Below, piece after piece: positions 5,794-64,000 of a DNA stretch of 64,000 nucleotides. Position 1 is the stretch's first letter; each line of letters opens with the position of its first letter. Source of the stretch: Bacteroidia bacterium (GTDB lineage Bacteria; Bacteroidota; Bacteroidia; 2-12-FULL-35-15). The stretch is taken from the NCBI GenBank assembly GCA_030654175.1, contig JAURXZ010000030.1:653510-717509 (forward strand), read 5' to 3'. The notes below the pieces were generated by a model. The model was given only the letters and a program-made list of their open reading frames with translations, did not search any database and was not told where the DNA came from. The position numbers were made by a program, and so were the translations under genes.

Positions 5794-5805
5794 ATATAAA
5801 AAAAT

Positions 5806-30633: not shown

Positions 30634-30654
30634 GTAACAAAAAATAATTAATGT

Positions 30655-31280: not shown

Positions 31281-31372
31281 GAATACGAGTTACAATCAGG
31301 AATCAAATGACCTATAGTGTAGATTTCCAAACCGAAAAAAAAAGCCTAGTTGATTTTGTTGATAGACCCCCG

Positions 31373-31552: not shown

Positions 31553-31671
31553 ATACACCATACACATACCTACACATACATAGTAAATCAAATCCAAAAA
31601 ATAAAGTTACTGTTGAATTTAAAAACAATACCAATTGTTTTGTTTATTTTTAAAATTAAATTCACAAAAGA

Positions 31672-35138: not shown

Positions 35139-35413
35139 TAAAGCACCCTGTAAAAATCCATAAAACATTTCTAATAAGTTTGCCTGCCAAGAAAAATTAA
35201 TTTTTGCATCCATCACCAATTAAAAAAGAAATTACGTGCCTGTTTAAATTTCCTGTGTTCGTTTTTCGGAGAATTTAAAATGTGTGAATGATGTAATTTA
35301 TTCCTAAAGTTATGTAATGTATATCCTTTACGAGGGGCTGATCTTTGTAGATCATAATCTACCTATCAGAGATGGTGCACCCTGCTTAAGTAAAACCCTT
35401 TTATTCTTTTATA

Positions 35414-36388: not shown

Positions 36389-36826
36389 GTTATACCGTTA
36401 ATAAAAGCAGTTGACAAGTCCAATTTTTAGTTTATTATCATCATAAAAATCATTATCCGGAAGGATTAGAAAAAAATAATTCTGAACTATCGGACTTGAA
36501 ACGTAAGAAATATTCCAAGTAGGATGGAACAATTTCGACTCAAATGTTTTTTATTCACCGGAAAAAAAACACCCTTCCGCACAGAAAGCCATTCACTCTC
36601 GCTTTTTTGTAATTTTTGCAATCGCCCTTACCAGTGGATGATTTAGACAAGTCTGCATAAATTATATCCAATTACAAACGCTTACAAACAGGTATATCCG
36701 TATATAAACACTTACGAACCGAATCAGGAATGCCGATCTCCACACCTTTGCATCGTCAAAAAACAGCAAACCGTTTTATTGATAACGATATTAAAAACAG
36801 TATTAACAACTAAAAAAACAAAAACC

Positions 36827-37168
36827 ATGAATGCATTACGTAACAAAGTACAATTGATCGGTAACTTAGGAATGGCTCCGGAGATCAAAACATTAGAGAG
36901 CGGAAGAAAACTGGCAAAAATGAGTATTGCCACAAATGAATCGTATAAAAACGCGAAAGGCGAACTTGTAAAAGAAACACAATGGCATAACCTTATTGCC
37001 TGGGGTAAAACTGCAGAGATCATCGAAAAATACCTGAAAAAAGGAAGCGAAGTTGCCATTGATGGAAAACTGATCAACAGAAATTATAACGATAAGGATG
37101 GCGTAAAGCGATATGTAACCGAAATTGAAGTGAATGAAGTGCTTCTAATTGGTGGAAATAAAGCCTAG
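36827..37168 (+). CDS. ssb: Single-stranded DNA-binding protein (OB fold), copy 1 of a tandem duplication; lacks acidic C-terminal tail
   Basis: MNALRNKVQLIGNLGMAPEIKTLESGRKLAKMSIATNESYKNAKGELVKETQWHNLIAWGKTAEIIEKYLKKGSEVAIDGKL is an SSB OB-fold. Start placed at 36827 to match copy 2; the ORF-track start 36779 adds 16 residues. Confidence 0.8.
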   Translation: MNALRNKVQLIGNLGMAPEIKTLESGRKLAKMSIATNESYKNAKGELVKETQWHNLIAWGKTAEIIEKYLKKGSEVAIDGKLINRNYNDKDGVKRYVTEIEVNEVLLIGGNKA

Positions 37169-37224
37169 TCAATTAAAAAATTTCAAAAAAATAAAAAAAA
37201 ATTAACAATTAAAAAACAAAAACC

Positions 37225-37563
37225 ATGAATGCATTACGTAACAAAGTACAATTGATCGGTAACTTAGGAATGGCTCCGGAGATCAAAACATTAGAGAGCG
37301 GAAGAAAGCTGGCAAAAATGAGCATTGCCACACATGAATCCTATAAAAACGCGAAGGGCGAACTTGTAAAAGAAACACAATGGCATAACCTTATTGCCTG
37401 GGGCAAAACCGCAGATATCATCGAAAAATATTTGAAAAAAGGCAGCGAAGTTGCTATTGATGGAAAACTGATCAACAGTAATTATACCGATAAGGATGGC
37501 GTAAAGCGATATGTAACCGAAATTGAGGTGAATGAAGTACTGATTTTGGGCGGAAAAGAATGA
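37225..37563 (+). CDS. ssb: Single-stranded DNA-binding protein, copy 2 (near-identical to copy 1); lacks acidic C-terminal tail
   Basis: 112 aa, ~93% identical to copy 1. The upstream 17 nt (aaaaaacaaaaaccatg) is also duplicated; repeat unit 398 bp. Confidence 0.8.
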   Translation: MNALRNKVQLIGNLGMAPEIKTLESGRKLAKMSIATHESYKNAKGELVKETQWHNLIAWGKTADIIEKYLKKGSEVAIDGKLINSNYTDKDGVKRYVTEIEVNEVLILGGKE

Positions 37564-37584
37564 ACCAAACTAATTATTTTTTAA

Positions 37585-37617
37585 AGCCCCTGAAAAAAAT
37601 TCAGGGGCTTTTTTTAT
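37585..37617 (+). terminator. Rho-independent terminator after the ssb pair
   Basis: agcccctga(aaaaaat)tcaggggct followed by ttttttt. Confidence 0.75.
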
Positions 37618-37757
37618 TTGCAATATTCCTGAACTAAAGCAATACGTTTGCCTTCAGGTGGCAAGAATCGTTTCAGGCACAACACCTATTTTCAAAAAAG
37701 AAGAAAAGATTGGATCATAATTTATTTTTTAATCCCTTGAAAACAAATCAGGATCCA

Positions 37758-45827: not shown

Positions 45828-45937
45828 AAGAATTGCTGATAAAGTCCAATTTGACAATTCTATAAATGGTGAATTTGATCCTATCGCCAATTTAATATCT
45901 CCTCACGCGGAATTGAGTAAGAGAATGAACTTCCAAA

Positions 45938-48900
45938 TTACCGTATTAAAGTTACAATCCCTTTATACTTATGTTTCCGATCTTTTAGATCAATCGCTTC
46001 TACAACATAAACATATACTTCAGCCTGAGCAATTTCGCCACCATGATTTGCTTTTCCATCCCAGGGTTTATCTATATCATCGGTTTTGTAAATTAAATTA
46101 CCCCAACGATCAAAAATAGTCATTTCATATTTTTTTATAAAAATGCCTCTGCCTGAAAAGCTATCATTTATTCCATCTCCATCAGGGGTAAATGCATTAG
46201 GGATATAAAATAAAAAATCGGGTTCAATAATTACGGTTTGATAAGCTGTATCCATACAATTGTATTGAGTGGATGTGATAAGTGTCACTAAGTATGTACC
46301 ACTATCTGCGTAAGTATAAGGAGCAGGGCTTAAGACAGAAGATGTATCAGAACCATCACCAAAATTCCAGTTCCAATGATCGGCTCCCGTGGATAGATCT
46401 GAAATTGAAATGACTGGATTTGTAATCGTTGTTGTTGGGGGGGTAACTGTGAAACTCGCATTTGGAGAGGGATAAACAGTAATGTAATTATTTTTAGTAA
46501 CGGTACTAACGCATCCACTGTCGGAAGTGGCTGTTAGCGTAACATTGAAATGTTCAGGTAAAAATACAGATTCAGTACCGTAACAATGGAATAGGTCCTG
46601 TGCTACTGTGGAAGAGCTTCCATCGCCAAGCGTCCACAACCACTGATCGATACTGCCCGTTGTACTATAGGAGAAATTTAAAAATAAAACACACAAGGGT
46701 TCACAGCCTATTGTATCATAACCATCAAAACGTACTATCGGATTTGGATTGACGGTAATAATTTTAACAGCTGAATCCTCACATCCGAAGTTAGAAACAA
46801 CCAACAGCTCAACAGTATAGGAACCGGAAGAAGTATAAAGGTGAGATGTGTTTTGATTTGTATTTAATGAACTGCTATCTCCAAAGTCCCATAACCAGGA
46901 TGCAATCACGTTATTGGTTGGGATAGTAGAAATATCAGTAAACTGAACATTGTTTCCATCACAAACATTTGCAGTGGAAAACTGTGCATCAGGCGGAGGA
47001 TAAACGATCACATTTTTAATAACTGTATCCGAACATCCATTGCCGGTAATTACTTTCAGAAAAACAGGATATGTTCCCGCCTGAGTATATAATTTATCGG
47101 GGCTCTGAGTGCTAGCGTCAATGCCGGTATTGTAATCAAAATCCCATTGCCAGCTGGCAATATTATCCGGAACTGCAACCGTTGAAAGATCTGTAAATTG
47201 AGTAAGCGCATTTAAACAAACACTATCAGCTTTAAAAGCTGCAAGGGGTTTAGCATAAACATCTATTGTATGAAGCACACTATCTTTGCACCCCTGCGCT
47301 GTAATAGCCATTAATTCTATATCGTAGCTACCCGGAGAGTAGGTATGTGTTGGCGAAAACGATGTATCATCAATTCCGGTAGTATGATCAAAATCCCAAC
47401 TGTAAACAGAAGCGCCTGTGGAAGTGTTTTGAAAAGCAGCTTGTAAGTAATCACAAACATTATTGACAGTAAAAGCTGCTACCGGAAGACAATAAACGTC
47501 CAAAGGTTTGGTGCTGGTAGAAGTACATCCGCTATCAGATGTTGCTGTGAGGCTGACAGTATAGGTATTGCAAACAGAATACAAATACGTAGGATTTTGT
47601 AAAATTGAACCTGCTGTCCCTTGTCCGAAAGTCCAGTTGTAAGCATCAATAGTACCGCTGTTAATAGTGCTACTATCTATAAATACGGAAGTAAGCCCAA
47701 CACATACGGCAGATGCTCCAAAGTTCACCACAGGATTAGGATTTACGTAAACAATACTACTGTCTTTTGCTACACAATTGTTTTGATCTGATACTGTTAA
47801 AATATAATTTGCGGTAATAGTTGGAGAAAAAGTTATGTTCTGAGTGGTTAAGCCTCCCGGCTGCCAACTATAATTATAAGAGCCAGTTCCGCCTGTATTT
47901 GTTGAGTTTAAGGTGCCGCTGCTTCCCTGGCAGATAGAAACGAAATTTGTAATATCTGATATTAGTTTGGTTGGTTCTGTGATAGTCACATTTTGAGTAA
48001 CCGTGCATAAATTCGAATCGGTTACCGTGCAGGTATAACTGCCTTGAATAAGCGCTGTGGCTTGTTGCGAGGTTTGAACAGGTGTGCTGTTCCAGCTATA
48101 AGAATAAGGCGGTGTGCCTCCTATGGCAATAATAGTGGCATCTCCTGTGGCATCTCCAAAACATTTAACATGATCAATAAAAACATTGTCAATACCGAGT
48201 GCCGCTGCCGGACTTGTGATCACAGTGCTGTCTTGCGATGCGCAGCCCTTTATATCCGCTACTGTTACTATATACTTTACCGGGGTCAAACCTGTTATCA
48301 CTGCGGTAGTAGATGTGTTACTCCATGCATACGTATAAGGAGCTGTTGTGCCCGAACCTGCAGCAGTTATTGCTCCGTCATTCAGGCCGAAGCAGCTTAC
48401 ATTAGTAGGATCGAGAGAAACGACAGGCAGGGGCAATATGCTGAGTGTATCATAAATAGTATCTGTGTAACAGGCATAGTGATTAATAGCAGTTACCAGG
48501 TAATCTGCTGTACTATCAAATTGCATAACCGGATTGTAAACTGAGGCTGTTCCGATCAATACATTAGGAGTTGTAAGTAATGCAAACCGCCAATCATAAC
48601 TTACTATTTTAAATGTATCCAACAATCCGAACTGTACAAATCGATTTACACAACTGTCGCTTGCAACTATTTTGTTTACTGGCCGGATCAAACTGGTAAC
48701 AATTGCGGGTAAGCCTAATGTTGATGATCGTCCACCCAAACTTTGTTGCATATCCACATATCCGCAGCCTGTACCCAATATATTCGGACTATTAATTACG
48801 CCTAAAGATGTTTGTCCATGCAAGGCAGCGTATATTTTACCATTGGCGGCAATCTGCAATGCACACATCTTATAACCTATTGCATTAGCTGTGGTTCCAA

Positions 48901-49825
48901 TGATCTGCCTGGATGCCAAAAACGCAGCATTATTTGCCACTGTTAAATCGTACTGATAAATGTTTGAGTTGTTCAATAAAGCATAATAAAGTATTTTGTT
49001 ATCAGGAGAAAATTCCTGACTGTATGAATAACCTCCGGGTGAAGAATCCGAAAACTTAGTACTCAAAACACCTGATGTATTGTTAAAATCATATACATAT
49101 ATACCATTGGGCACTGAGCCATGGGTTGCTGTAACTATCTTGCTATCAGGCGATGACTTTAATGAGCCCAAATGGGCATCCATCGCTGGACCAACAGAAC
49201 TAATAACAGGTGTATTGTTAAAACCGGCAGATGTTATGGCATAAGCATAATAATCAGGCGTTCCTACCGGCTTTCCTATTACCCAAAAATCACAATTATT
49301 GGAATGTTGTGCTACACATATTTTTTCTGTTGTAGTGGTACCATACAGATGTATGTTTTTTACTGCAGTTACGCTTCCCAGTCCGCCATTCAACGTCATA
49401 TCTACTTCAGAATAACGTACACCGTTGGGGCCACCAACATATTCAACTGTAACTATAAAATATTTATCAAAACGTTTACTTCCGTAGTTATAGGTTCCGG
49501 GGTAAGGAACTATAATAGCTGATTGAGTTGCAGAAGGATTACCAAACAAGCCTGTTCCATTGGGCATTGCCACATGATTTTTATTCCAGACAGTTATACC
49601 ATCCGTATAAAATACCAATGCGCCATTTTTGTCCGCCACAGATGCACAGCCTTCTGAAGTGCTAAGTACTCCATCGGTAAGTGGTGTTGGAGGGTCCGTG
49701 TTAAAATCAAGTCCCGCATTAACCCCAAAATACCAAATGTTGGCTTCACCCTGTGCAAAAATAGCAGATGTAAAACTTAGTATAAAAAAAGTGTAAAAAA
49801 ATAATATTTTTAATCGTGTGCCCAT
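45938..49825 (-). CDS. Giant secreted adhesin-like protein: N-terminal beta-propeller-like region, SprB repeats, PKD-like repeats, T9SS type B (gliding-motility-associated) C-terminal domain
   Basis: 1295 aa with signal peptide. SprB-repeat matches (VSCFGLNDGAITAAGSGTTAPYTYAWSN..., HVKCFGDATGDATIIAIGGTPPYSYSWNS...). C-terminus YIPNAFTPDGDGINDSF...FDRWGNLIYKTDDIDKPWDGK...YVYVV is the TIGR04131-type CTD. Confidence 0.85.
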   Translation of the reverse strand: MGTRLKILFFYTFFILSFTSAIFAQGEANIWYFGVNAGLDFNTDPPTPLTDGVLSTSEGCASVADKNGALVFYTDGITVWNKNHVAMPNGTGLFGNPSATQSAIIVPYPGTYNYGSKRFDKYFIVTVEYVGGPNGVRYSEVDMTLNGGLGSVTAVKNIHLYGTTTTEKICVAQHSNNCDFWVIGKPVGTPDYYAYAITSAGFNNTPVISSVGPAMDAHLGSLKSSPDSKIVTATHGSVPNGIYVYDFNNTSGVLSTKFSDSSPGGYSYSQEFSPDNKILYYALLNNSNIYQYDLTVANNAAFLASRQIIGTTANAIGYKMCALQIAANGKIYAALHGQTSLGVINSPNILGTGCGYVDMQQSLGGRSSTLGLPAIVTSLIRPVNKIVASDSCVNRFVQFGLLDTFKIVSYDWRFALLTTPNVLIGTASVYNPVMQFDSTADYLVTAINHYACYTDTIYDTLSILPLPVVSLDPTNVSCFGLNDGAITAAGSGTTAPYTYAWSNTSTTAVITGLTPVKYIVTVADIKGCASQDSTVITSPAAALGIDNVFIDHVKCFGDATGDATIIAIGGTPPYSYSWNSTPVQTSQQATALIQGSYTCTVTDSNLCTVTQNVTITEPTKLISDITNFVSICQGSSGTLNSTNTGGTGSYNYSWQPGGLTTQNITFSPTITANYILTVSDQNNCVAKDSSIVYVNPNPVVNFGASAVCVGLTSVFIDSSTINSGTIDAYNWTFGQGTAGSILQNPTYLYSVCNTYTVSLTATSDSGCTSTSTKPLDVYCLPVAAFTVNNVCDYLQAAFQNTSTGASVYSWDFDHTTGIDDTSFSPTHTYSPGSYDIELMAITAQGCKDSVLHTIDVYAKPLAAFKADSVCLNALTQFTDLSTVAVPDNIASWQWDFDYNTGIDASTQSPDKLYTQAGTYPVFLKVITGNGCSDTVIKNVIVYPPPDAQFSTANVCDGNNVQFTDISTIPTNNVIASWLWDFGDSSSLNTNQNTSHLYTSSGSYTVELLVVSNFGCEDSAVKIITVNPNPIVRFDGYDTIGCEPLCVLFLNFSYSTTGSIDQWLWTLGDGSSSTVAQDLFHCYGTESVFLPEHFNVTLTATSDSGCVSTVTKNNYITVYPSPNASFTVTPPTTTITNPVISISDLSTGADHWNWNFGDGSDTSSVLSPAPYTYADSGTYLVTLITSTQYNCMDTAYQTVIIEPDFLFYIPNAFTPDGDGINDSFSGRGIFIKKYEMTIFDRWGNLIYKTDDIDKPWDGKANHGGEIAQAEVYVYVVEAIDLKDRKHKYKGIVTLIR

Positions 49826-49885
49826 TACTTAGAACATTTATTAATTAACCCGTTGGTGAAGCATAAATCATACAGCAATCATGAT

Positions 49886-52800
49886 CTATTTCATCAATGT
49901 AACAATCCCATTGTAGGCGTGATCTCTATTTTTAAAATCGGTAAGTTTTACAACATAAACGTATACGTCTTTTTGCGCAATTTCGTTACCTCTATTTGCT
50001 TTTCCATCCCATGGTTTATCAATATCATCGGTTTTGTAAATTAAATTACCCCAGCGATCAAAAATAGTCATCTCGTATTTTTTTATAAAAATGCCTTTAC
50101 CTGAAAAGCTATCATTTATACCATCTCCATCCGGTGTAAATGCATTAGGAATATAAAATACAAAGTCAGGTTCAATAACAATAGTTTGATGTGCCGTATC
50201 AACACAATTATATTGAGTGGATGTGATCAGTATTAATGTGTATGTGCCGGTATCAGCATAAGTATATGAGGATGTATTATAAACAGAGGAAGTATCAGAA
50301 CCATCGCCAAAATTCCAATTCCAATGATCAACTCCTGTGGATAGATCAGTAATTGAAATAACAGGGTTAGTAATGGTCATTGCTTGAGGCTCAACAATGA
50401 AACTCGCATCAGGATTGGGGTATACGGTGATGTAATTGTTTTTAGGCAACGTTGTAACACAACCACTATCGGAAGTAACCGTTAATGTAACATTAAAAGA
50501 ATTAGGCGAACCTACAGAATCATTGATATAACAATGGTCGAAAGATTGGGAAGTTGTTCCCGGGCTGCCGTCTCCAACATTCCATGCCCATTGAACATTA
50601 ACACCGGTGAGAACAGAAGATGAATTTTGAAAAGAAATACACAAAGGCTCGCATCCAACCGTATCGCTTGAACTAAAATTCACAACAGGATTTGGGTTTA
50701 CCGTAACCGGTTTTGTGGTAGAATCCAAACAGCCAAAATTGGATACGATCACCAACTCAACATTATAATCATTTGCAGTAGCATACAAATGGCCACCAGG
50801 AACAGATTGGCCGGAGTGAACTAAACTGCCATCTCCAAAATTCCAGGTCCAGGACTGTATAGTGGTGTTAACAGGGGTGCTTGACAAATCAGTAAATGAT
50901 ACCGCAGTTCCTGCACAAACGTTGGCTGTAGAAAATTCTGCTGTAGGGTTAGGATAAACCGAGATGTAATTAATTTTAGAAAGAGTACTAACGCATCCAC
51001 TATCGGAAGTAACCGTTAATGTTACATTAAAAAAAACTGGGGAAGAGTTGTTGCTATAACAATGATTGGAATTTGTAGTATTGCTTGTTGCACTTCCATC
51101 ACCAAAATCCCAGAGCCAGCTAAAATTATTTCCTGTGTTAACGGACGATAAGTCCTGGAAGGAAACGCATAACAATGCACACCCGGCCGTGTCGTCAGCG
51201 GTAAAATTTACCATTGGTTTAGGATTTATTGTAACTATTTTAATGATGGAATCGGAGCAGCCGAAATTGGAAACTGCTTGTAATTGTACACTATAAGAAC
51301 TGTCCAAAGCAAAAAGGTAAGAAGGACTTTGAGTATTATTTAATGGACTTCCATCACCAAAGTCCCATGAATAGGCTTGTATCGTCTCTGGAGAATTAAT
51401 TGTTGATAAATTAATGAACATTACAGAGCTTCCAACACATACATTGGCAACAGAAAATTGAGGAACCGGTAGCGGATGAACATCAACATTTATTGAAGCG
51501 CTGCCAATGCAATCGTTACTGTTTTTTACAATAACTGAATAAGTTGCAGGTGAAGAAGGCGATACCGAAATTGCAGTTGTGGTGGCTCCCGTGCTCCACA
51601 AATACGTTCCACCACCAGATGCAGTAAGTGTAGTGCTATCACCATTACAAATACTTGCATTACCGGTTATTGAGGCTATTGGTAATGAGTCTACCGTTAT
51701 TATCAGGCTGTCTGTAACGGAACAATTATTAATATCTGTGCCGGTAACAAAATATTCGGTAGTGATCAGAGGGCCGGCAATTACAGTTGTTCCTGAAGGT
51801 GCATTCAGTCCTGCAATTGGCAACCATGAATAAGTAAATGCACCACCGGCATTTATTTGCACGGAATCTCCAATACAAACGGATGAGCTGGGGCTGAGCG
51901 ATAGGGTAGGTAATTGATGAACAACAATTTGTATTTGCGCAGTATCCTTACAATTATTATAATTAGAGATCACCTGATAAGTGATATCGGTGATCGGTGA
52001 TGCGATAACTGTTTTTGCAGTATCACTGCTTAAAGTTATTGCCGGGGACCATAAATAATTTGACTGACCATTTGCAGTGAGTGTTAACGTATCACCATTA
52101 CAAATGCTGTCTTTGCTTGCACTTATTGTTAAATCGTCTATTGGTTCAAACCATTGTATTACCACTAAACCATCACCACCTGTTTTTATATCGCCAACAG
52201 CACCAACCGTCATATCATAATCGTTCCCCACTCCTGCTCCTGAAATATAGTGAACATCGGTCATATCAGGTGGATAAATATTTAGCTCCGGTGTAAACTT
52301 AACAAATCCCCCCGAAGTATATTTAAAGCCAGAACCACCTTCACCGCCATCTGCAAAGTCTTCCGGAAGGTGGCCGGAAAACGAAAACCTGCTTATCCCT
52401 GAAATACCTCCAACATACCCACCACCGCCACCGCCAAAACCTGTAGAATTTGTAATTGCATTTTGCCCTGTTAATGGTAAATACCCTCCTGATAAAGGAC
52501 CATTGCCATTACCACCGGACGTTTCATCTAACCCATTAGCATCTGCCATACCGCCTCCACCACCTGCTATAACCCTTGCATTAGCCTGAGTAACGGTTGA
52601 AAAGAACACTCCACTTAATCCGCCACCAGAACCGGTTTCGGAAGTACTTGCTGATGCCATAGAATTTCCGCTGCCTCCAAAACCAAAAGTTGATCTTGCT
52701 GTTTGATTTTCGGCCCTTGTAGCCCAACCTCCTTCACCGGAAATTACAACGTACGTTTCACCGGGAGAAGTTATAAACTCGTCAACAGTGAAGCCTCCAG

Positions 52801-53143
52801 CTCCAGCCCCAAAACCATACGCAGCAACATAACCACCACCACCACCGGCTCCCCAGGCTTTAACTTTTATTGAAGTTACTCCTGCAGGTATAATAAAATG
52901 CTGATCAAACCCTGTATATTTTACTGCAATACCTCTATTATAGCCTAATTCAGGCAATACTGTTTTCCAGGCGGTTGAATTATAACCGCAAACATAACAT
53001 TGGTTTAAAGTTGCCAGATCAGGATCTGCACAATCAATCAAGCCATCACTATCATCATCAATTCCGTTACCGGAGATCTCAGTTTGCGCAAAAAAAGACA
53101 AACTATAGAAGGTGAATAATATAAAAAATAAAAGTTGTTTCAT
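49886..53143 (-). CDS. Secreted multi-domain protein with Gly-rich N-terminal module, PKD-like repeats and T9SS type B C-terminal domain
   Basis: 1085 aa with signal peptide. Long GGGGG-rich segment (aa ~95-260). Repeated ...FGDGS...TVTSDSGC... PKD-like units. C-terminal 95 aa near-identical to the neighbouring genes. Confidence 0.85.
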   Translation of the reverse strand: MKQLLFFILFTFYSLSFFAQTEISGNGIDDDSDGLIDCADPDLATLNQCYVCGYNSTAWKTVLPELGYNRGIAVKYTGFDQHFIIPAGVTSIKVKAWGAGGGGGYVAAYGFGAGAGGFTVDEFITSPGETYVVISGEGGWATRAENQTARSTFGFGGSGNSMASASTSETGSGGGLSGVFFSTVTQANARVIAGGGGGMADANGLDETSGGNGNGPLSGGYLPLTGQNAITNSTGFGGGGGGYVGGISGISRFSFSGHLPEDFADGGEGGSGFKYTSGGFVKFTPELNIYPPDMTDVHYISGAGVGNDYDMTVGAVGDIKTGGDGLVVIQWFEPIDDLTISASKDSICNGDTLTLTANGQSNYLWSPAITLSSDTAKTVIASPITDITYQVISNYNNCKDTAQIQIVVHQLPTLSLSPSSSVCIGDSVQINAGGAFTYSWLPIAGLNAPSGTTVIAGPLITTEYFVTGTDINNCSVTDSLIITVDSLPIASITGNASICNGDSTTLTASGGGTYLWSTGATTTAISVSPSSPATYSVIVKNSNDCIGSASINVDVHPLPVPQFSVANVCVGSSVMFINLSTINSPETIQAYSWDFGDGSPLNNTQSPSYLFALDSSYSVQLQAVSNFGCSDSIIKIVTINPKPMVNFTADDTAGCALLCVSFQDLSSVNTGNNFSWLWDFGDGSATSNTTNSNHCYSNNSSPVFFNVTLTVTSDSGCVSTLSKINYISVYPNPTAEFSTANVCAGTAVSFTDLSSTPVNTTIQSWTWNFGDGSLVHSGQSVPGGHLYATANDYNVELVIVSNFGCLDSTTKPVTVNPNPVVNFSSSDTVGCEPLCISFQNSSSVLTGVNVQWAWNVGDGSPGTTSQSFDHCYINDSVGSPNSFNVTLTVTSDSGCVTTLPKNNYITVYPNPDASFIVEPQAMTITNPVISITDLSTGVDHWNWNFGDGSDTSSVYNTSSYTYADTGTYTLILITSTQYNCVDTAHQTIVIEPDFVFYIPNAFTPDGDGINDSFSGKGIFIKKYEMTIFDRWGNLIYKTDDIDKPWDGKANRGNEIAQKDVYVYVVKLTDFKNRDHAYNGIVTLMK

Positions 53144-53157
53144 TCGTTTGTGTCGAT

Positions 53158-55647: not shown

Positions 55648-55700
55648 GAATAAATTTTCTTTTATTTAATTTACAATATGAATATAGCCTCTGTTTTCAA

Positions 55701-58700
55701 CTACCTTACCAACGTTACAATTCCTCTGTATTTGTGTTTTATCATTTTAAAATCAGTAACCTTAACAACATATACATACACATCGCTCTGCGCTAATTCA
55801 TTACCATGATTTGCTTTTCCATCCCATGGTTTTCTGATGTCGTCTGTTTGATAAATGAGGTTACCCCACCTGTCAAAAATAAGCATTTCAAAATCTATAA
55901 TTCCATATGCTTTTGCAGGAAAGGAATCATTTATTTCATCGCCATTAGGTGTAAATGCATTGGGAATATAAATTACCCAATCAAGGCCTATTAAAATGGT
56001 TTTCTGAATGGTATCTGCACAGGAATAGATATTATTAACTATCAGGGTAACATCAAACTGCCCCGTATCCGTATAGGTATAATAAGGATGTTGTAAAGTA
56101 GAAATACTATCCTGCAGGCCAATACTAAGATCCCATTGCCAGATAGTGGCTCCCAATGATTCGTTTTGAAAAGAAATAAGTGGGCTTAATATTGTTGCTG
56201 GTTGCGGACTATAATTAAATGCAGCAACAGGGATAGGATTTACCGTAATATAATCATTCTTAATGAGGGTAGTGGTACAACCATCATTTGATGTTACAGT
56301 TAATTTTACGGTATAGGTTACCGGAGAATATACGGTGTTGTTTTCAAAACAGTGAAAGGGATTTGTGAGGTTACTCAACGTACCATCACCAAAATCCCAG
56401 AACCACTGCTGGTTTATACCTGTTGCTATGGTAGATAGATCCTGAAAGTTCACGCATAAAGGAGAGCATCCGATACTGTCAGGTTGAAAATCAACAACAG
56501 GGCTGGAACGAACTGTTATTGGAAGAGTGACCGTATCCTGGCACCCAATAGCATCTGTGACAATAACTGTATAAGAAGAATCTGCCATTGGTGAAACCGT
56601 TATACTCTCTGTGGTTTCGGAAGTGTTCCATAAAAAAGAATACCCCGGAGTGCCGCCTGAAGCCGAAGCAGTGATTGTTGTGCTTTGTCCCTGGCAAATA
56701 TTTGTGGAGGTTGCGCTGGCGGTAACGGCCACCGCTGGTGTGACAACAGCACTGAACGTTTGTACACAACTATTGGAATCCGACACCGTAACGCTGTAAG
56801 TCCCCGATGATAAACCGGTTATTGCGTTAGTGGTTTGTCCATTGCTCCACAAGTAGGTGTATGCACCTGTTCCACCGCTTGCTGTTACAGTTGCTGTTGC
56901 ATTATTACCTGTGTTACAAGTTCCACTTAATATCGCAATACTTGCCGTTAAAGCAGATGGTTCTGTTATAGTTAACGATGCGCTTGAATCGCAACCGGCA
57001 GCATCGGTTACAACGATGGTATAGTTGCCTGCACAAATGCCATTGGCCGCGGAGGTTGTTTGTGCAGGTGTTGTGTTCCATGAATAAGTGTAACCGGGGG
57101 TGCCGCCCGAGGCCGTTACTGTTGCTGTTCCATTACAGATCGCATTGCAGTTCAAATTAACCTGAGCAGTAATAGCAACTGTAATAGCTAAGGCTGGCTC
57201 AATGATGGTAACAGTTTCAGTTGCAGAGCAACCGTTTGCATCAGTAACAATAACAGAATAAGTGCCTCCGGAAAGAGTTGTGGCGGTATCGTTCAGCTGA
57301 GTCGGTGTTGTGTTCCATACATAAGTGTATGGTGCAGTTCCACTCCCTGTAACAGTGGCTATAGCGCTACCATTGCTTTCCCCCTTGCAGATGGTGTCCG
57401 GATCGCTCATAGAAAGAAGAGGATTTGGATTTGTAATTACCTCCACTGTATCTTTAGAAACACAATTGATCCTGTTTATTGTTACTTCGAAATTATTTGT
57501 TACCGGTAAGCCGGAATTATTTAATGCCGCAAACGTTGCCTCTGAAGAATTCAGGTTACTTAATCCTGGGGAAGCGGTCCATAAATAGGTGTATCCGGTG
57601 ATGGGCGGATAACCCAATGTAATTGTTTGGCCGGAACATACACTGGTATCAATACCAATTTGTGTCATTGGTATAGTGATGGCCAACTGGTCGGATATGC
57701 AGGAACAATGGTTTACAGAAGTGTCCAATACCGCAATAACAGAACAGGAATTTCCGGCAGGTAAAAAAACATCCGATGAATAAGAATAGCTTCCATTTTC
57801 GGGTATCGAAGCATTGAGTGTATCGTTTACAATAAAAACATCCCCGGTATTATAAACTCCGTTTCCATTGGCATCAAAATAATAACTGATGACCACATCA
57901 TTTACCGGTAAAATATCTTCGCCCGTATTATTAATAGTAAAGCTAATAGTAGCGGTTTCCCCTGTGGGTGGGTTAGGTACAGAATATCCGCTTGGATCGC
58001 TTAGGGATAAATAAGCTTTGTACGCGAAAACAGCCAGGGTATCAAATCCGTTTATAACATTGATATTACAGGCATTTCCTGTAGAGGTACATACTACGTT
58101 GGCGATACTCAATGTGCTGGCCTGGAAATAAGAAATACCACAGGAGATAGCAGCTGGTGTTCCGGCATAATTAAAATCAAAAACAACACTATCCCCGGCT
58201 TGCATTCCTGCGGGCATCTTCCATTTAAGAGTCAACTGCCCGTTCAACATGGTTTGCACCGGATTTGGGTTTGCAGGAGCATTGTGAATACCTGCAAAAG
58301 AACTGTTTTCATAGCTTACACCATACGGAAGAGTAATGACGATTGAATCCGTTGCTCCAATAGCGCCCGGACCAAGATTTACAGCATTTACATGCATTAT
58401 CGAACTGGCAGCACACGGAGAAATATAAGTGGTTGACAAAAAAACATCGGTAGTATAAGTGGCCTCGGCACCTGTTATTACAAGCTGTACAGGAGGTATC
58501 AGGTCCTGGTTCACAGGAAGTCCGCAGGCTGCTTTCCCCTTAATGTTAAACTGAATACTATTGCCCGATGTGTAACTGCAATTGGTAATTATTTTGAATG
58601 TGACCTTCACTAAGTTCAATGTTGAATCGAGATAACCTTTTAAACCATTGCTACCAATAAGGTTATTTATGGCCGACAGATCCCATTGCCAGGTAGTTCC

Positions 58701-61700
58701 ATTCAGTAAAACAGGGTCGGGAATAACGCTATAAGGGCTATATTCAGGATAACTAAGTTTTGACGAACCCGGTACAATAACCACTCCTACCGGCAAAACA
58801 GTGGTTAATAATACATTGTATAAGGTTCCTGCCTGAAAATTTACCAATTCAACACTATAGTTGCTTGTGTCGCATAGCGGGACTGAACCGGATGGACCGG
58901 TCACCGCAATATCCAATGCAGGAATGAGTGGTGTTTCTTTCAAGGTAATTTTACCGGGTAAGCAGGGATAATCAGATAAATTAACAGGATAACCCTCGGA
59001 ACAATTCCAACCTGCATAAATGATAATGCTGTCCTGGAAACAGGAAGTAAAATTGGCTGTAACCCGAAAACTTCGGATAGTAGCAGCATTTACTGTTCCA
59101 AGCTGATAAATATCACCTGTAGCCGGAATAGAAACATTGTTATCCACATCAAATACATCAATGATAGCTACGCCCGAAATTGTGGGGCAACTTATCCAGG
59201 AGTTTTCTGTATTAGAGGTGTTGGAAGGGTTTGATAATGTGACATCCCAGGTAGCCATACTATCAGGAGCATTAACGGATGGCAATATGGATTGAAGAAA
59301 AAAAGACGGGGCATCATAAATGACATAATCCTGTGTCGCGGATACAACCAAAGGATAACTTCCGGAGCCGGTTAAATAACCGGTTGGTGAAAAGGTCCAA
59401 TCATATTGTATTCCCTGCGACACAACAGGTGTGACCTCACAGGAGGGGACAATTATAACATCAAGGGTGCCAGAGAACCCATCATCGCTCAATGGAAGAG
59501 TTCCTCCATAACCATTAAAATAGTTTTCTACCGGAAACACAAGCAATGCAGTATCCGCGTAAAGCGGTGTTAAAGCAATCGCTGCACTTGTGCTCGAGAG
59601 TCCTGATCCGGCTGTTCTATCTTCAGTGAACTGAGCAGAAACAAATTTATAGCCGAGTGGAATAAGGGCTGTCAAATTACTGATATGCGCCCAGTTCCGG
59701 TATTCGTTAGGAAACAAATTCCCTCCATTGTAATTGCTGCAACAGGGCCCGATACTTAAATAATACTTCTGTGAGATGGTAATATTTTCGCAGGATTTTA
59801 CAGTATAATAACTATCGTCATGGCTCTCAAACCGATACCCCATGATAAAACACTGACTAAAAAAACCGTCACACTGGTATCTGTTAAAGCCCGGGGGAGG
59901 ATTCGCAACATCGGTTAAATAAAATTCATTGGTAGTTTCACAAGTGTAAATCGGACCTATGGTGTTAGTTGAGACTTTATATCGAGGTATAAACACCAAA
60001 GAATCGCTGTTTAAATATTGAAATCCATTGGGCATACAGCCGGAAGAAATAAGTCCCGCCACACTTAAATTATAAGAAAAAGAACGTGTGGTGCCCGTTG
60101 TAGTCACCCCGGCAGTGAAATTAGTACAGGTGGCAACAAGCACTCCTCCTCTGAATACAGTTAATTTTGCATCCTGATACGTTAACAAATTACCATTTGT
60201 TATGGAACTGTTTATATAACAATACACCCAGAAAGGATGTGCTGTGCTGGTTCGCACTTTTCCATGATAACCTTCTGAAATGGTATCACCAAACATGGCC
60301 CTGTTGGTTTTTATACTTGAAAAATTCAGATTTCCGCTCACATCAGGGACACCGTTTCCACCTCCCGGTTCATTATCCGGCAGGCCATAGCTGGTGCGTT
60401 TGAAATAATAATTACGGACCATCATCCCCTCAGGACATACACTAACTTCCGGTTCAACAGGGATCACAATAAATGTTGCACAAAGAATGCTTACCGGTGC
60501 ACTTTGACAGGAAACCGCCACTTCACACGCACATGAAACGGAGGGTACATAAAACACCTTTATGTCCACAGAACCAAACCCTCCGGAACAACCATTACAA
60601 TCTACTGCAAGGTCAATTTTTACCTGTGCCTGATTCAGATCAAAAGGTGGCATTCCGTTAAAAATTGCAGTTATGATATTGCCGGAAGTTGTCACTGAGG
60701 TGGGGTTCCAGGTGTCAACTCCATTTATACTTAATACATAAGGATTAACCAAATTAACTAAACAGGGAGGCAGTGTGAAAACAAATTTCCAGTAACCACT
60801 TGCATCACCCGGATAAGGTACCTGAAGTCCATAACTAGTGAATTTAAAATTAAATGCACCCGTCTGACCGGAATCTAAAGTGGAAGGAGAATAGTTATTA
60901 CTTAAAATACCATACAACTGGGAATACACTCTTCCCCAGCCCTGGCTGATAATATAAGAGCTCTGACAGAAATTGCTGTAACTTCCACGATACGCCCAAC
61001 CGTTCAGATAAGATTGCCCGGTACCTGCGCAGGCATTGTAGCAGCAGCTGTAGGTATTCCATTCCAAATAGGCCGTATCCCCTGCATTAAGAGCAGGAAT
61101 AGTTAAGTATACCCTCCCCTTGGAGTTTGCGGCCATACAATTTAACTGATCTGTGATTTCTGTACTATCAGCGGTAACGCTGGTGATTGGGCCTGAGTCT
61201 ATTTGTAACTTAAAGCTGGATTCATCAATATTTGAACCCACACTGCTGTTATACCCTGAACCGTTTGTCTGAAATATATCCAGCTGAATATTAGTGGCTT
61301 GTCCCAATCCGGTATTCACGATCATCAACCTTTGAAGACTGGCATTTCCCGCACCCAAACAAGGATTCATATCGGGGTTCAGGGGGGTGATCTCTATATT
61401 TGGTATCAGGTTAGGAAACACCACATTGGCGCCAAGAATAGACGTCTGGCAAACCTGGTTGTTACACCCCCATGCGGCAGTGATGTCTGAAGCAACAAGG
61501 AAACAGTTATTAACCTTTACTGTTTCGCAAATAATAATAGATTCGCCCTGCTCAAATAAACCGTTATTATTACCAACAGAACTGAAATGCGAAGCATTAA
61601 ATGTAATTGTTTCGGTAGTACCTGAATTCACCCAAACACCATTATTTATGTTGTTAACCTGTATCCCGGTTCCATGAATATCGGTAAGCGTAAACTGGGC

Positions 61701-62267
61701 CAAATCGCCAAGTCCACTGTTAGTGATCGTTATACACCGTGTATAGATGTCACCAATATTGGCGGTGTAAGACTGATTGGTAATGTTAGAAATGTTTAAA
61801 ACCGGTTGTTTTACAGAATATGTTAAAGTAGTATGGTTATCATAATTTTGGCTGTTATTAGCAGTGTAATCAACACGTATTTTATTTTCCACTACCCCTC
61901 CTCCCGCAATATATGCGATAATATCACAATTGGCAGATGCAGTAATTGTAATGCTTAAGGCTTGCGCCAAAGGAATAATAGAGGGCAATAAAAATACTGG
62001 TTTGTTCGGGGTGCTGGTGTTCAGTTCTGTCACTCCGGCACCTGTTACTGATCCTACCTGGTAAACCATCCCCGATGGCATTGTAAGCTTTAACGTATCA
62101 CTTGTAACGGTGAAGGGGGAGGGGTTATAGATGGTAATGGTAAAAACTTTGGCTGCCCCGCAAACGCTGATCTGAGAGGGTAAGTTACTGCCAATAGTAA
62201 TAATATTGCCCTGGCTATAGCACTGATAATAGACTAAAGAGAAAATAAAGAGTAAAAACTTTTTCAT
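55701..62267 (-). CDS. Giant (2188 aa) cell-surface adhesin-like protein with SprB repeats, PKD-like domain and T9SS type B C-terminal domain
   Basis: Signal peptide MKKFLLFIFSLVYYQCYS. At least five consecutive SprB-type repeats (ICKGESNGSAIATVTGSGTAPYTYVWNTTP..., TYTYLWSNGQTTNAITGLSSGTYSVTVSD...). C-terminal IPNAFTPNGDEINDSF...FDRWGNLIYQTDDIRKPWDGK. Confidence 0.85.
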   Translation of the reverse strand: MKKFLLFIFSLVYYQCYSQGNIITIGSNLPSQISVCGAAKVFTITIYNPSPFTVTSDTLKLTMPSGMVYQVGSVTGAGVTELNTSTPNKPVFLLPSIIPLAQALSITITASANCDIIAYIAGGGVVENKIRVDYTANNSQNYDNHTTLTYSVKQPVLNISNITNQSYTANIGDIYTRCITITNSGLGDLAQFTLTDIHGTGIQVNNINNGVWVNSGTTETITFNASHFSSVGNNNGLFEQGESIIICETVKVNNCFLVASDITAAWGCNNQVCQTSILGANVVFPNLIPNIEITPLNPDMNPCLGAGNASLQRLMIVNTGLGQATNIQLDIFQTNGSGYNSSVGSNIDESSFKLQIDSGPITSVTADSTEITDQLNCMAANSKGRVYLTIPALNAGDTAYLEWNTYSCCYNACAGTGQSYLNGWAYRGSYSNFCQSSYIISQGWGRVYSQLYGILSNNYSPSTLDSGQTGAFNFKFTSYGLQVPYPGDASGYWKFVFTLPPCLVNLVNPYVLSINGVDTWNPTSVTTSGNIITAIFNGMPPFDLNQAQVKIDLAVDCNGCSGGFGSVDIKVFYVPSVSCACEVAVSCQSAPVSILCATFIVIPVEPEVSVCPEGMMVRNYYFKRTSYGLPDNEPGGGNGVPDVSGNLNFSSIKTNRAMFGDTISEGYHGKVRTSTAHPFWVYCYINSSITNGNLLTYQDAKLTVFRGGVLVATCTNFTAGVTTTGTTRSFSYNLSVAGLISSGCMPNGFQYLNSDSLVFIPRYKVSTNTIGPIYTCETTNEFYLTDVANPPPGFNRYQCDGFFSQCFIMGYRFESHDDSYYTVKSCENITISQKYYLSIGPCCSNYNGGNLFPNEYRNWAHISNLTALIPLGYKFVSAQFTEDRTAGSGLSSTSAAIALTPLYADTALLVFPVENYFNGYGGTLPLSDDGFSGTLDVIIVPSCEVTPVVSQGIQYDWTFSPTGYLTGSGSYPLVVSATQDYVIYDAPSFFLQSILPSVNAPDSMATWDVTLSNPSNTSNTENSWISCPTISGVAIIDVFDVDNNVSIPATGDIYQLGTVNAATIRSFRVTANFTSCFQDSIIIYAGWNCSEGYPVNLSDYPCLPGKITLKETPLIPALDIAVTGPSGSVPLCDTSNYSVELVNFQAGTLYNVLLTTVLPVGVVIVPGSSKLSYPEYSPYSVIPDPVLLNGTTWQWDLSAINNLIGSNGLKGYLDSTLNLVKVTFKIITNCSYTSGNSIQFNIKGKAACGLPVNQDLIPPVQLVITGAEATYTTDVFLSTTYISPCAASSIMHVNAVNLGPGAIGATDSIVITLPYGVSYENSSFAGIHNAPANPNPVQTMLNGQLTLKWKMPAGMQAGDSVVFDFNYAGTPAAISCGISYFQASTLSIANVVCTSTGNACNINVINGFDTLAVFAYKAYLSLSDPSGYSVPNPPTGETATISFTINNTGEDILPVNDVVISYYFDANGNGVYNTGDVFIVNDTLNASIPENGSYSYSSDVFLPAGNSCSVIAVLDTSVNHCSCISDQLAITIPMTQIGIDTSVCSGQTITLGYPPITGYTYLWTASPGLSNLNSSEATFAALNNSGLPVTNNFEVTINRINCVSKDTVEVITNPNPLLSMSDPDTICKGESNGSAIATVTGSGTAPYTYVWNTTPTQLNDTATTLSGGTYSVIVTDANGCSATETVTIIEPALAITVAITAQVNLNCNAICNGTATVTASGGTPGYTYSWNTTPAQTTSAANGICAGNYTIVVTDAAGCDSSASLTITEPSALTASIAILSGTCNTGNNATATVTASGGTGAYTYLWSNGQTTNAITGLSSGTYSVTVSDSNSCVQTFSAVVTPAVAVTASATSTNICQGQSTTITASASGGTPGYSFLWNTSETTESITVSPMADSSYTVIVTDAIGCQDTVTLPITVRSSPVVDFQPDSIGCSPLCVNFQDLSTIATGINQQWFWDFGDGTLSNLTNPFHCFENNTVYSPVTYTVKLTVTSNDGCTTTLIKNDYITVNPIPVAAFNYSPQPATILSPLISFQNESLGATIWQWDLSIGLQDSISTLQHPYYTYTDTGQFDVTLIVNNIYSCADTIQKTILIGLDWVIYIPNAFTPNGDEINDSFPAKAYGIIDFEMLIFDRWGNLIYQTDDIRKPWDGKANHGNELAQSDVYVYVVKVTDFKMIKHKYRGIVTLVR

Positions 62268-62420
62268 CCTTTGCTATTTTGGCAAATTAAAATTACTGAA
62301 AACAATAGTTTTGAAAGGTAATAAAAAAGATGCTGTAAATTGGAAAATAGTTGCATTGGGAGGACAAGCTATATCAAAACGAAATATTGAGATATCAGTA
62401 TATCAAGAAAAGAAAGAAAT

Positions 62421-64000
62421 TCACCTCAACAATGTTACAATCCCTTTATAGAGGTATTCCTCTTTTTTAAAATCAACAACTCTTATCGAATAAACATATA
62501 CATCTTGTAGTGCAATTTCCGTCCCGCGTTTTATTTTTCCATCCCAGGCTTTGTTAATGTCATTGGAAATGAAAATCAGATTTCCCCAACGATCAAATAT
62601 CCTCATTTCAAATTCTTTTATAAAAACACCTTTGGCTGAGAAACTGTCATTTTTTTCATCTCCATTTGGTGTAAATGTATTTGGGATATAGAATTCAAAT
62701 TCCGGTTCAATAATGACAGTTTCATAGGCGGTATCTATACAATTGTAAGTAGTGGATGTAATTAACGTTATTGTATAGGTGCCTGCTTTTTGATAAGTAT
62801 GAGAACCGGGATCGGATAAGGCATAAGTTGTGCTATCTCCAAAATTCCAATTCCAAAAATCTGTTCCTATTGATAGGTCGTTAATTGAAATAACAGGATC
62901 GGTAATAGTTGTAGCCTGTGGTTGAGCTGTAAAATCTGCTATGGGATTTGGAAATACAGTGATAAAATTATTTTTAGATAGTGTGCCAACACAACCACTA
63001 TCAGAGGTTACTGTTAAAGTAACATTAAAAATGTTTGGAGAAGATACATTATCATTGGTATAACAATGATCAAAAATTTGAGAGTTATTTACAACACTGC
63101 CATCGCCTACATTCCAGTCCCACTGAACGTTACCTCCGGTTGCAATAAAAGACGAATCCTGAAAACCAACACATAAAAGTTCACATCCGGTTTTATTAAT
63201 TGCAGAAAAATTAACAAGGGGGGTAGGGTTAACAGTAATTGTTTTAGTTACAGAATCTCTGCACCCGAAATCAGAAACTGCCAATAATTGAACCGCATAA
63301 GAACCAACAGCAGCATACAGGTGTGTGGTGTTTTGGTTATTAATAACAGGACTGCCATCACCAAAACTCCATGCCAGATTTAAATTATTGCCGCTTGCAA
63401 TCATTGATGAATCGTTGAAATTCATAATTTGTGTCAAACACTTTCCGGTAAAGCTAAAATCAGCAAGCGGCAATGGCTGCACAGTTACAGTGGCTGTTCC
63501 GCTTTGTGTCGGAGAACAGTTCCCTGAACCAGCATCCTGCATACTTACCAAAGAATACAAATATATTCCCGAAACGCTTGTAGCAACATTAACTGTCGCA
63601 TTATTTCCCACACTGGTTACCGTTTGAGCTGTTCCGCCATTAACCATATACGTGAAGGTATAAGGCGCTGTTCCACCTGCCCCTGTAAAAGTAATGAATG
63701 GTGCTGTAGCATTCTTACATATTGCTGTTGTTCCTGTAATTGTTGCGGTTGGCAATGGATTTATGGTTATTGTTATCCCGGAGCTGCTTGCAGTTGCTGG
63801 ATTTGCACATGCATCGTTAGATGTTATTACACAGGAGACCACCTGTCCGTTAGTTAATGCTGCTGTTGTAAACGTTACACTGTTTGTTCCAACATTCGAT
63901 CCGTCCACCTGCCATTGGTAAGCAGGAATTGTTCCACCATTAACAGGTACAGCGGTAAAAGTGACGCTGGCACCGGGACAGATACCTCCGCTTGGTGATA
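62421..64000 (-). CDS. Fifth T9SS type B CTD / PKD-repeat protein; 5' end beyond the window
   Basis: C-terminal YIPNTFTPNGDEKNDSF...FDRWGNLIFISNDINKAWDGK with PKD-like units upstream. The reading frame stays open past the internal Met (63908) to the window edge. Confidence 0.7.
   Translation of the reverse strand, partial: SPSGGICPGASVTFTAVPVNGGTIPAYQWQVDGSNVGTNSVTFTTAALTNGQVVSCVITSNDACANPATASSSGITITINPLPTATITGTTAICKNATAPFITFTGAGGTAPYTFTYMVNGGTAQTVTSVGNNATVNVATSVSGIYLYSLVSMQDAGSGNCSPTQSGTATVTVQPLPLADFSFTGKCLTQIMNFNDSSMIASGNNLNLAWSFGDGSPVINNQNTTHLYAAVGSYAVQLLAVSDFGCRDSVTKTITVNPTPLVNFSAINKTGCELLCVGFQDSSFIATGGNVQWDWNVGDGSVVNNSQIFDHCYTNDNVSSPNIFNVTLTVTSDSGCVGTLSKNNFITVFPNPIADFTAQPQATTITDPVISINDLSIGTDFWNWNFGDSTTYALSDPGSHTYQKAGTYTITLITSTTYNCIDTAYETVIIEPEFEFYIPNTFTPNGDEKNDSFSAKGVFIKEFEMRIFDRWGNLIFISNDINKAWDGKIKRGTEIALQDVYVYSIRVVDFKKEEYLYKGIVTLLR

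Follow-up and report, generated by a model that had tools for sequence, protein, structure and literature searches.

Five co-oriented genes, named here g1 to g5, lie side by side on a 64,000-nt stretch of DNA from a Bacteroidia bacterium (contig JAURXZ010000030.1 of assembly GCA_030654175.1, positions 653,510 to 717,509; the whole stretch is called the window below, and positions are those of the window). A first-pass annotation of the window described them as giant adhesin-like genes rich in SprB repeats and PKD domains, which end in a near-identical C-terminal domain (CTD) of the type B class of the T9SS (type IX secretion system), and it proposed that the conserved 3' ends are substrates for recombination and that the locus generates cell-surface variation. 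We wanted to know whether this row of genes is indeed a dedicated device for switching the cell surface, or an ordinary multigene family that changes on an evolutionary time scale. The second answer is favoured by our analyses: with a probability of about 0.7, the locus is a tandem, slowly reshuffled array of at least five paralogs for T9SS type B surface proteins, ordinary but dynamic, and not a dedicated switching device. All sequences with which the window was compared are metagenome-assembled genomes (MAGs) or metagenome contigs of uncultured Bacteroidota or Bacteroidia.

The array genes are predicted to encode T9SS type B cargo

A scan of the window for open reading frames (ORFs) agreed with the annotation that five co-oriented ORFs are present on the minus strand, separated by short spacers (60 nt between g2 and g1, 14 nt between g3 and g2, 53 nt between g4 and g3, and 153 nt between g5 and g4). 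Only g4 is genuinely large, and the description of the genes as giant applies to this gene alone. The number five is a lower bound, as related arrays contain two or three further CTD genes upstream of the g5 orthologue.

All five C-termini matched the type B model TIGR04131 with 46.7–49.7 bits (curated cutoff, 35 bits) and the CHU_C model PF13585 with 57.9–66 bits (cutoff, 27 bits), as had been proposed. The CTD comprises about 88 aa, and in all five proteins the match ends no more than three residues from the C-terminus. Inspection of the translations by eye showed that the N-termini of g1 to g4 consist of a basic residue and a hydrophobic stretch followed by A/S-Q, which corresponds to a Sec signal peptide; the N-terminus of g5 is located outside the window, and the g5 orthologues carry a signal peptide. 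By their profile matches, their signal peptides and the C-terminal position of the domain, the array genes are members of the T9SS type B cargo family.

The Pfam search identified PKD domains in each of the five proteins. SprB repeats (PF13573) were detected only in g1 (two stretches) and g4 (four stretches), where they make up a small share of the protein, and the search found none in g2, g3 and g5; the SprB part of the earlier description is thus limited to two of the genes. The dominance of SprB repeats that characterizes the gliding adhesin SprB is not seen in the array proteins. With few repeats and without the sprCDF context, the array genes are not SprB orthologues.

The 3' ends are less similar than had been reported. 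Whereas the ~300 nt at the 3' ends of neighbouring genes had been given as about 90% identical, the last 288 nt of g1 and g2 are 81.6% identical (83% at the aa level), and those of the remaining paralog pairs are 64–74% identical (59–69% aa identity). A repeat finder gave similar values, with 82, 74, 69 and 73% identity of the other CTD ends to the g1 copy over 300 nt. An identity of 92% between g1 and g2 is limited to a core of 180 nt. Exact matches between paralogs reach 32 nt at most (positions 50022–50053 of g2 and 46074–46105 of g1), and in nine of the ten pairs the longest measures 12–25 nt. Similarity is also not confined to the CTD: homology between the paralogs extends 350–750 aa upstream, through a stalk of PKD and immunoglobulin-like (Ig) domains, at 35–63% aa identity, and it is the N-terminal heads that differ from gene to gene.

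The CTD-coding ends are mosaic

An alignment of 25 array-gene CTDs, taken from five genomes, needed no gaps. The array that matches the window best is located on MAG contig JAZKBF010000008 (loci L013, L014 and L016 merged); its orthologues of the window genes are marked with a prime, and its two additional genes are named A and B. For g4, g5 and g1, the nearest relatives of the CTDs are their own orthologues (89–91% nt identity). This is different for g2. The first 180 nt of its last 288 coding nt (positions 49997–50176), which include the only 32-nt exact match between paralogs, are 93% identical to g1' and 92% to g1, versus 83% to g2', and at third codon positions these values are 82 and 80% versus 75%. 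In the MAG, the CTD of g2' is 94% identical to that of its neighbour B (88% at third positions). Gene A combines a g2-like body with a g3-type CTD that is 92% identical to that of the window g3; its third positions are 87–92% identical to g3, against 42–65% to g2-type genes. Moreover, the last ~330 nt of the window g3 are closer to gene A than to g3'.

Permutation tests on gene triplets (MaxChi) placed breakpoints 260–330 nt from the 3' end, that is at the CTD boundary, with p = 1e-4 to 3e-3. For g2 the breakpoint is located ~264 nt from the 3' end (p = 1e-4), and for the window g3 (p = 1e-4) the majority signal flips from 131:25 to 7:23 at the breakpoint. Tests on g4 and g1, which served as controls, gave p = 0.42. 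These patterns indicate that members of the array have exchanged 3' ends. The proposal that the 3' ends are substrates for recombination therefore holds for past exchange, with breakpoints at the CTD boundary, but the present-day ends, being 64–82% identical with exact runs of at most 32 nt, are poor substrates.

A blastn high-scoring segment pair joining window positions 45913–50698 to JAZKBF positions 34709–39489 had prompted the idea of a chimeric g2, with a g2-type body joined to the last 810 nt of gene B. Sliding-window identity led us to reject it: g2 is about 80% identical to g2' throughout and resembles B only in the last ~150 nt.

Related arrays retain gene order and vary in content

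In the JAZKBF array, two upstream CTD genes (at least 1349 aa, and 1547 aa) are followed by g5', g4', g3', A, g2', B, g1' and a gene lacking a CTD. The aa identities to the corresponding window genes are 85% for g5', 87% for g4', 91% for g3', 78% for g2' and 89% for g1'. Gene A encodes 1570 aa and is g2-like, g2' encodes 1820 aa and B 1249 aa. Positions 53153–64000 of the window are collinear with this array at 86.5% nt identity. Neither A nor B has a counterpart in the window, and the N-terminal head of g2' (733 aa) is missing from the window g2. An invariant, syntenic locus, which had been named beforehand as the outcome contrary to a variable one, is not what the related genomes contain: they retain the order g5-g4-g3...g2...g1, and whole genes have been gained or lost. 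Array order is conserved and the slots are variable.

Orthologues of g4 are full-length, with a near-constant ~2188 aa, at 98, 88, 87, 81, 67 and down to 55% aa identity. As their length does not change down to 55% identity, the individual genes represent old, stable lineages.

Two contigs, L038 (96.6% nt identity) and L039 (87%), are collinear with the window across g5-g4-g3. The closest view of a change in content is provided by L040 (Ga0105164_10007396), which is 97.2% identical through g4-g3 and 98–100% identical over the last 1 kb of g3, but is unrelated (22–30% identity) from the base after the g3 stop codon. The slot after g3 (L040 positions 3137–6458) is occupied there by a long form composed of a g1-type beta-propeller head (35% aa identity to g1), a g2-type acidic Cys repeat and a glycine-rich domain. 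The glycine-rich part is 87% identical (nt) to g2' of the MAG and only 80% to the window g2. Across genomes, g2-type bodies occur with at least three head states, namely no additional head, a propeller or another type.

Other relatives differ further. L005, which contains the 67% orthologue of g4, has another array, of five genes, with suf genes on one side and a metallo-beta-lactamase gene on the other; in L002, g4' is the first gene of the array and follows POR/nuo genes; and L041 contains only g3' and an apparently disrupted long form. The latter, a g2/A-like gene at positions 6030–11312 of Ga0114966_10000081, appears split into an N-terminal ORF of 418 aa and a C-terminal ORF of 920 aa with a 1.2-kb gap, and may be a pseudogene.

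The spacer between g5 and g4 is empty (150–153 nt) in the window and three relatives. In JAZJZM010000001 (L001/L007) an AbiEii toxin-antitoxin pair is present between g5' and g4', the toxin gene and a gene for a 273-aa partner being located at L007 positions 12285–13906, and L008 contains a RhuM-family gene at this site (positions 1286–2296). This spacer is a minor hot spot of the array at which defence or mobile genes are inserted.

Purifying selection acts throughout the array, and a search for switching machinery found none

Comparison of the window with the MAG gave ratios of nonsynonymous to synonymous substitution rates (dN/dS) of 0.03–0.23 in every head, stalk and CTD segment. The most constrained heads are those of g1 (0.06) and g3 (0.03), and the CTD is the segment with the lowest ratio in g1 and g4 (0.05). 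Purifying selection acts on all segments, which speaks against antigenic variation or diversifying selection in the heads.

The synonymous divergence (dS) was 0.4–0.6 for the g1, g3, g4 and g5 pairs versus 0.8–0.9 for g2 (49886–53143) and g2' (JAZKBF 26292–31754). This roughly doubled dS, together with the L040 comparison, leads to the view that a distinct and older allele or paralog occupies the g2 slot of the window; the slot seems to hold something other than a strict orthologue of g2'.

The window was also screened for the elements of programmed variation systems. No recombinase was found in it. Inverted pairs were limited to seven weak ones (18–27 nt, 78–94% complementarity), none of which flanks a spacer, and Tandem Repeats Finder reported a single repeat, of 23 nt and 1.9 copies inside g1, and no simple-sequence tract. 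Donor cassettes of the silent, promoterless or truncated kind, with long flanks of high identity, were not found in the array; its ORFs are all uninterrupted and include a signal peptide and a CTD. None of the features that define programmed variation systems is present at the locus. The claim of a variation-generating locus can be retained in so far as gene content differs between related genomes; the absence of switching machinery and the purifying selection speak against the remainder. The only trace of a mobile element in the window is an IS200-like Y1 transposase ORF of 177 aa (31672–32205), which is a weak match to part of the profile and is located 14 kb from the array.

The heads differ between the genes

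The heads of g1, g2 and g4 have no significant PDB sequence match, so that structure prediction was needed. For the g1 head (aa ~28–380), no Pfam model matched either, although it has more than 1700 homologues, which are found on T9SS type B and on some type A cargo. An AlphaFold2 model based on 40 homologues (pLDDT 90.7, pTM 0.83) predicts a beta-propeller with an Ig-like domain after it. Foldseek matched it best to 1L0Q (E = 2.7e-13), a YVTN propeller plus PKD domain of an archaeal S-layer protein, and next to WD40 and lactonase propellers; the beta-propeller-like body named in the annotation is borne out by this model.

The g2 head is glycine-rich, as had also been described. It scored 20.0 bits against PF21722 (Gly_rich_2), below the cutoff of 24.3 bits, and the homologues that it retrieved carry PF12810 (ALK_LTK_GRD) and/or PF21722; this search returned mostly glycine-rich low-complexity matches, among which close orthologues were not included. 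The long forms of g2 relatives have an additional N-terminal head of 590–730 aa. Directly after the signal peptide of g2 (aa 25–44, positions 53012–53071) there is an acidic double-disulfide repeat, for which we obtained a sub-threshold match to NF033662 and a weak match to Teneurin-4 in the PDB. In the long forms this acidic Cys repeat lies inside the protein, where the additional head joins the glycine-rich domain, and so looks like a module boundary.

The g3 head is Cys-rich, comprises ~140 aa and is followed by PKD domains. That of g4 (~1500 aa) contains many invariant cysteines. A model of g4 aa 1–1200 (pLDDT 78.7) predicts an all-beta string of sandwich domains, and Foldseek returned only generic strings of Ig, MG and ASH domains (TM 0.10–0.16), to which no specific function can be assigned. 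Orthologues of g5 are 1017–1120 aa long with a glycine-rich head (annotated as PF12810, a weak match).

No linked shuttle gene was found

Two genes for cargo with a T9SS type A CTD (TIGR04183/PF18962) are present in the window, at 15036–17507 and 21854–23818, which encode an SBBP beta-propeller protein and an M1-family peptidase, respectively. The organism therefore probably uses a T9SS, with both CTD classes. Genes of the T9SS core (sprA/sov, gldKLMN, porV) were not found within the 64-kb window.

Type B cargo is shuttled and anchored by proteins of the PorP/SprF family (PMC9143113), and in Flavobacterium johnsoniae the shuttle gene adjoins nine of the 12 type B substrate genes (PMC12618676). 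A shuttle gene directly downstream of its substrate, which is usual for type B, is absent here; the position after g1 is occupied by pgk. In agreement with the annotation, which had found no sprF/porP-type partner interleaved, none of the window ORFs of at least 120 aa matched PorP/SprF (PF11751-type), and neither the homologous 42-kb JAZKBF010000008 array nor arrays L001, L002 and L005 yielded such a gene. An sprC/sprD/sprF operon context was not found either, the neighbours of the array genes being other CTD cargo genes and housekeeping genes.

Type B substrates without an adjacent sprF are a known state, termed 'orphan' (PMC12618676). In F. johnsoniae, three orphans whose CTDs are more than 44% identical share one shuttle, crosstalk was seen for a pair of CTDs with 68% identity and not for a pair with 43%, most type B CTDs are only 20–30% identical, and the secretion signal can require up to 235 aa (PMC12618676). 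The CTDs of the array, with 59–83% aa identity, are in the range in which sharing was demonstrated in F. johnsoniae. The absence of a linked shuttle gene, this level of identity and the common PKD module point to orphan substrates of one or a few shuttles; most likely, the array members share one or few shuttles encoded elsewhere.

Layout and surroundings of the array

The features of the array are given in Table 1. Downstream of g1 are pgk (convergent), fbp, a GNAT gene, and the genes for aspartate kinase and pyruvate carboxylase. Scans for sigma-70 promoters and for terminators were both at background, with 57 promoter-like sites versus 56 expected and 12 terminator-like sites versus 15.2 expected. 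The G+C content of the array region (46001–64000) is 0.385–0.43 versus 0.32–0.39 across most other parts of the window, which is probably due to the amino-acid composition of the Gly/Thr/Ser/Pro-rich proteins and not to a foreign origin. At the other end of the window, three paralogous genes for TPR and SpoIIE/PP2C phosphatase proteins (1142–3358, 3377–5455 and 12582–14765) are located around a gene for a 2102-aa bacterial alpha-2-macroglobulin (6127–12435).

Table 1. Coordinates and predicted organization of the array genes and their parts
Feature	Position	Strand	Description	Evidence or remark
g1	45938..49825	-	Predicted T9SS type B cargo, 1295 aa; signal peptide, 7-bladed-type beta-propeller head, 2 SprB repeats, Ig/PKD stalk, type B CTD	ORF; Pfam PKD_4/SprB/CHU_C; TIGR04131 47.9 bits
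g1 head (aa ~28-380)	48686..49744	-	Predicted beta-propeller	AlphaFold2 and Foldseek
g1 type B CTD (aa 1208-1295)	45941..46204	-		Nearest relative is the orthologue g1' (J_g1), 91% nt
g2	49886..53143	-	Predicted type B cargo, 1085 aa, 'short form'; signal peptide, acidic Cys repeat, glycine-rich domain head, Ig-like/PKD stalk, CTD	
g2 glycine-rich domain (aa 83-331)	52151..52897	-		PF21722 sub-threshold; homologues with PF12810/PF21722
g2 type B CTD (aa 998-1085)	49889..50152	-	Mosaic	
g3/g2 spacer	53144..53157	.	14 nt	Strain-level breakpoint in the L040 comparison
g3	53158..55647	-	Predicted type B cargo, 829 aa; signal peptide, ~140-aa Cys-rich head, 5 PKD stretches, CTD (53161-53427)	
g4	55701..62267	-	Predicted type B cargo, 2188 aa; signal peptide, ~1500-aa Cys-rich all-beta head of tandem sandwich domains, 4 SprB repeats, PKD, CTD (55704-55970)	
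g5/g4 spacer	62268..62420	.	153 nt	Empty in the window
g5	62421..64000	-	3' 525 codons readable: Ig-like, 3 PKD stretches, CTD (62424-62687)	ORF open to the window edge (beyond 63998)

Discussion

The reading that we prefer, a slowly reshuffled paralog array, builds on the gene structure, the family membership, the mosaic CTDs, the differences between genomes and the purifying selection. For secretion, the sharing of a shuttle, a function as adhesins and the reason for CTD homogenisation, we infer the following. Each protein, composed of a Sec signal peptide, a distinct head, a common Ig/SprB/PKD stalk and the ~88-aa type B CTD, would be exported by Sec, after which the T9SS translocon would recognise the CTD and probably also the PKD region next to it. 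An outer-membrane shuttle of the PorP/SprF type would then take over the protein and hold it at the cell surface, where it would act as an adhesin or binding protein. The array itself would evolve through duplications, through events in which whole genes are gained, lost or replaced at fixed slots, and through head exchange, and short-tract recombination would swap or homogenise the CTD-coding ends and so keep the CTDs compatible with a common shuttle. The outcome is that strains differ in their surface repertoire, a variation that is evolutionary and at the level of the population and not programmed within the cell.

Several observations weigh against this reading or complicate it. The g3/g2 and g2/g1 junctions of the window are without confirmation in any independent assembly, and only g5-g4-g3 is confirmed. 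One of the MaxChi controls, g5, gave p = 0.008; its breakpoint is located at the alignment edge, and we treat the signal as an artefact. The triplet tests are complicated by the fact that the window g2 and g2' are not strict orthologues (dS 0.8–0.9). A porP/sprF gene may be present upstream of g5, outside the window. Finally, the -7 motif of Bacteroidota (TAnnTTTG) was not found in the array spacers.

The proposal that the conserved 3' ends are active substrates, at which heads are shuffled onto CTDs so that the locus itself generates surface variation at an appreciable frequency within a lineage, is in our opinion unlikely. It would account for the mosaic CTD-coding ends with breakpoints at the CTD boundary, for the different slot after g3 in close strains, and for the g2-type heads that vary between genomes (none, propeller or another type). 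However, the low identity of the paralogous ends and their short exact runs (12–25 nt in nine of ten pairs, and never above 32 nt) offer little to such a process, and the CTDs of g4, g5 and g1 follow orthology across genomes. The length of g4 orthologues does not change down to 55% identity, dN/dS is low everywhere with the heads as the most conserved part, and neither a recombinase nor inverted repeats, simple-sequence repeats or promoterless cassettes were found. Moreover, an exchange of equivalent CTDs leaves the displayed head unchanged; the clearest head differences are at 5' ends and in whole-gene slots, which crossovers in the CTD do not explain, and the 80% identity of the alternative g2 forms suggests old, deeply diverged alleles.

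If recombination were left out altogether, the similarity of the 3' ends would result from common descent and strong purifying selection on the secretion signal, and the differences between arrays from independent duplications and losses. The low dN/dS of the CTD in g1 and g4 (0.05) and the behaviour of the g4, g5 and g1 CTDs as plain orthologues agree with this explanation, yet we consider it improbable: the discordance reaches third positions (87–92% for gene A versus g3 against 42–65% to g2-like genes, and 88% for g2' versus B), the majority signal of the window g3 reverses at a defined breakpoint, and gene A combines a g2-like body with a g3-type CTD. Equally improbable is an origin of the mosaics and strain differences in metagenome assembly, by mis-joining of paralogs or strains at repeated CTD/PKD sequence. 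The metagenomic source of every comparison sequence fits such an origin, and so does the position of the contig ends, which are found a short way past the g4 orthologue in L001 and L002 and within the gene after g3 in L040, as expected of repeat-induced breaks. On the other hand, exact paralog repeats of at most 32 nt in the window are well under typical assembly k-mers, the two partners of each mosaic are found complete in the MAG, each in its own surroundings, so that a single mis-join is insufficient, g5-g4-g3 is collinear in four independent assemblies, and the array ORFs are all uninterrupted and carry signal peptides and CTDs.

A more specific version of the array reading can only be put forward tentatively, and we think it is rather less probable than its negation. 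In such a 'common-adaptor' system, gene conversion would keep the module of PKD and type B CTD uniform, one unlinked PorP/SprF shuttle would serve many cargo proteins, and heads or genes would be swapped at fixed slots between strains, resulting in surface variation at the level of the population.

CHU_C multigene families, from which PF13585 originates, are present in Cytophaga hutchinsonii and other Cytophagia and Sphingobacteriia; they comprise many secreted proteins rich in PKD and Ig domains, which far outnumber the PorP/SprF genes. The array can be likened to them, as its proteins carry the same CHU_C/type B domain on PKD/Ig-rich polypeptides. To our knowledge, neither the array organisation nor the exchange of CTD segments has been described for these families.

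The closest parallel is formed by the F. johnsoniae orphans Fjoh_1123 and Fjoh_1720 as well as Fjoh_4934, which are served by the single shuttle Fjoh_1677 (PMC12618676). Like the array genes, they have a TIGR04131-type CTD and no adjacent sprF-like gene, and they are putative adhesins with repetitive stalks. Their CTDs are more than 44% identical, compared with 59–83% in the array, both well above the 20–30% of unrelated type B CTDs (PMC12618676). Unlike these orphans, the array genes form one tandem row of at least five genes (at least nine in the related MAG), have a long PKD and CTD module in common and show signs of CTD segment exchange, and for them the sharing of a shuttle is presumed. 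SprB, the gliding adhesin encoded in the sprCDBF operon of F. johnsoniae with its cognate shuttle SprF, is likewise a large surface protein with a type B CTD, and its repeats occur in g1 and g4. It consists, however, of 6497 aa (669 kDa) that are largely repeats, as opposed to two and four stretches in g1 and g4 and none in the other three; the array moreover lacks sprC, sprD and sprF neighbours, its heads are unrelated, and a role in motility is unsupported.

Exchange between paralogs, with modules shuffled on a conserved CTD, is also known for the T9SS surface proteins Kgp, RgpA and HagA of Porphyromonas gingivalis (PMC5266723), in which strain mosaics of T9SS cargo are not tied to the core phylogeny (PMC5266723). 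Those proteins have type A CTDs and near-identical (>90%) adhesin modules, and are encoded at dispersed loci of a host-associated pathogen (PMC5266723), whereas the array encodes type B CTDs in one tandem row, with modules that are 35–83% identical, in an environmental uncultured organism.

Type B substrates of T9SS are less studied than those of type A, and the matching of CTDs to PorP/SprF shuttles was clarified only in part in 2025, and for a single model organism. With at least five orphan substrates, CTDs of 59–83% identity, signs of CTD exchange and conserved heads, the locus is a natural test case and dataset for the specificity between CTD and shuttle. If one shuttle serves all members, the natural CTD variants show which positions are free to vary. 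If the common-adaptor reading is true, it would link CTD-shuttle specificity, an open question of T9SS, to the concerted evolution of a tandem family. Apart from this, the array is an ordinary multigene family of putative adhesins, a tandem, strain-variable set of orphan type B cargo genes with CTD mosaicism, and the differences between strains show how environmental Bacteroidota change their surface repertoire.

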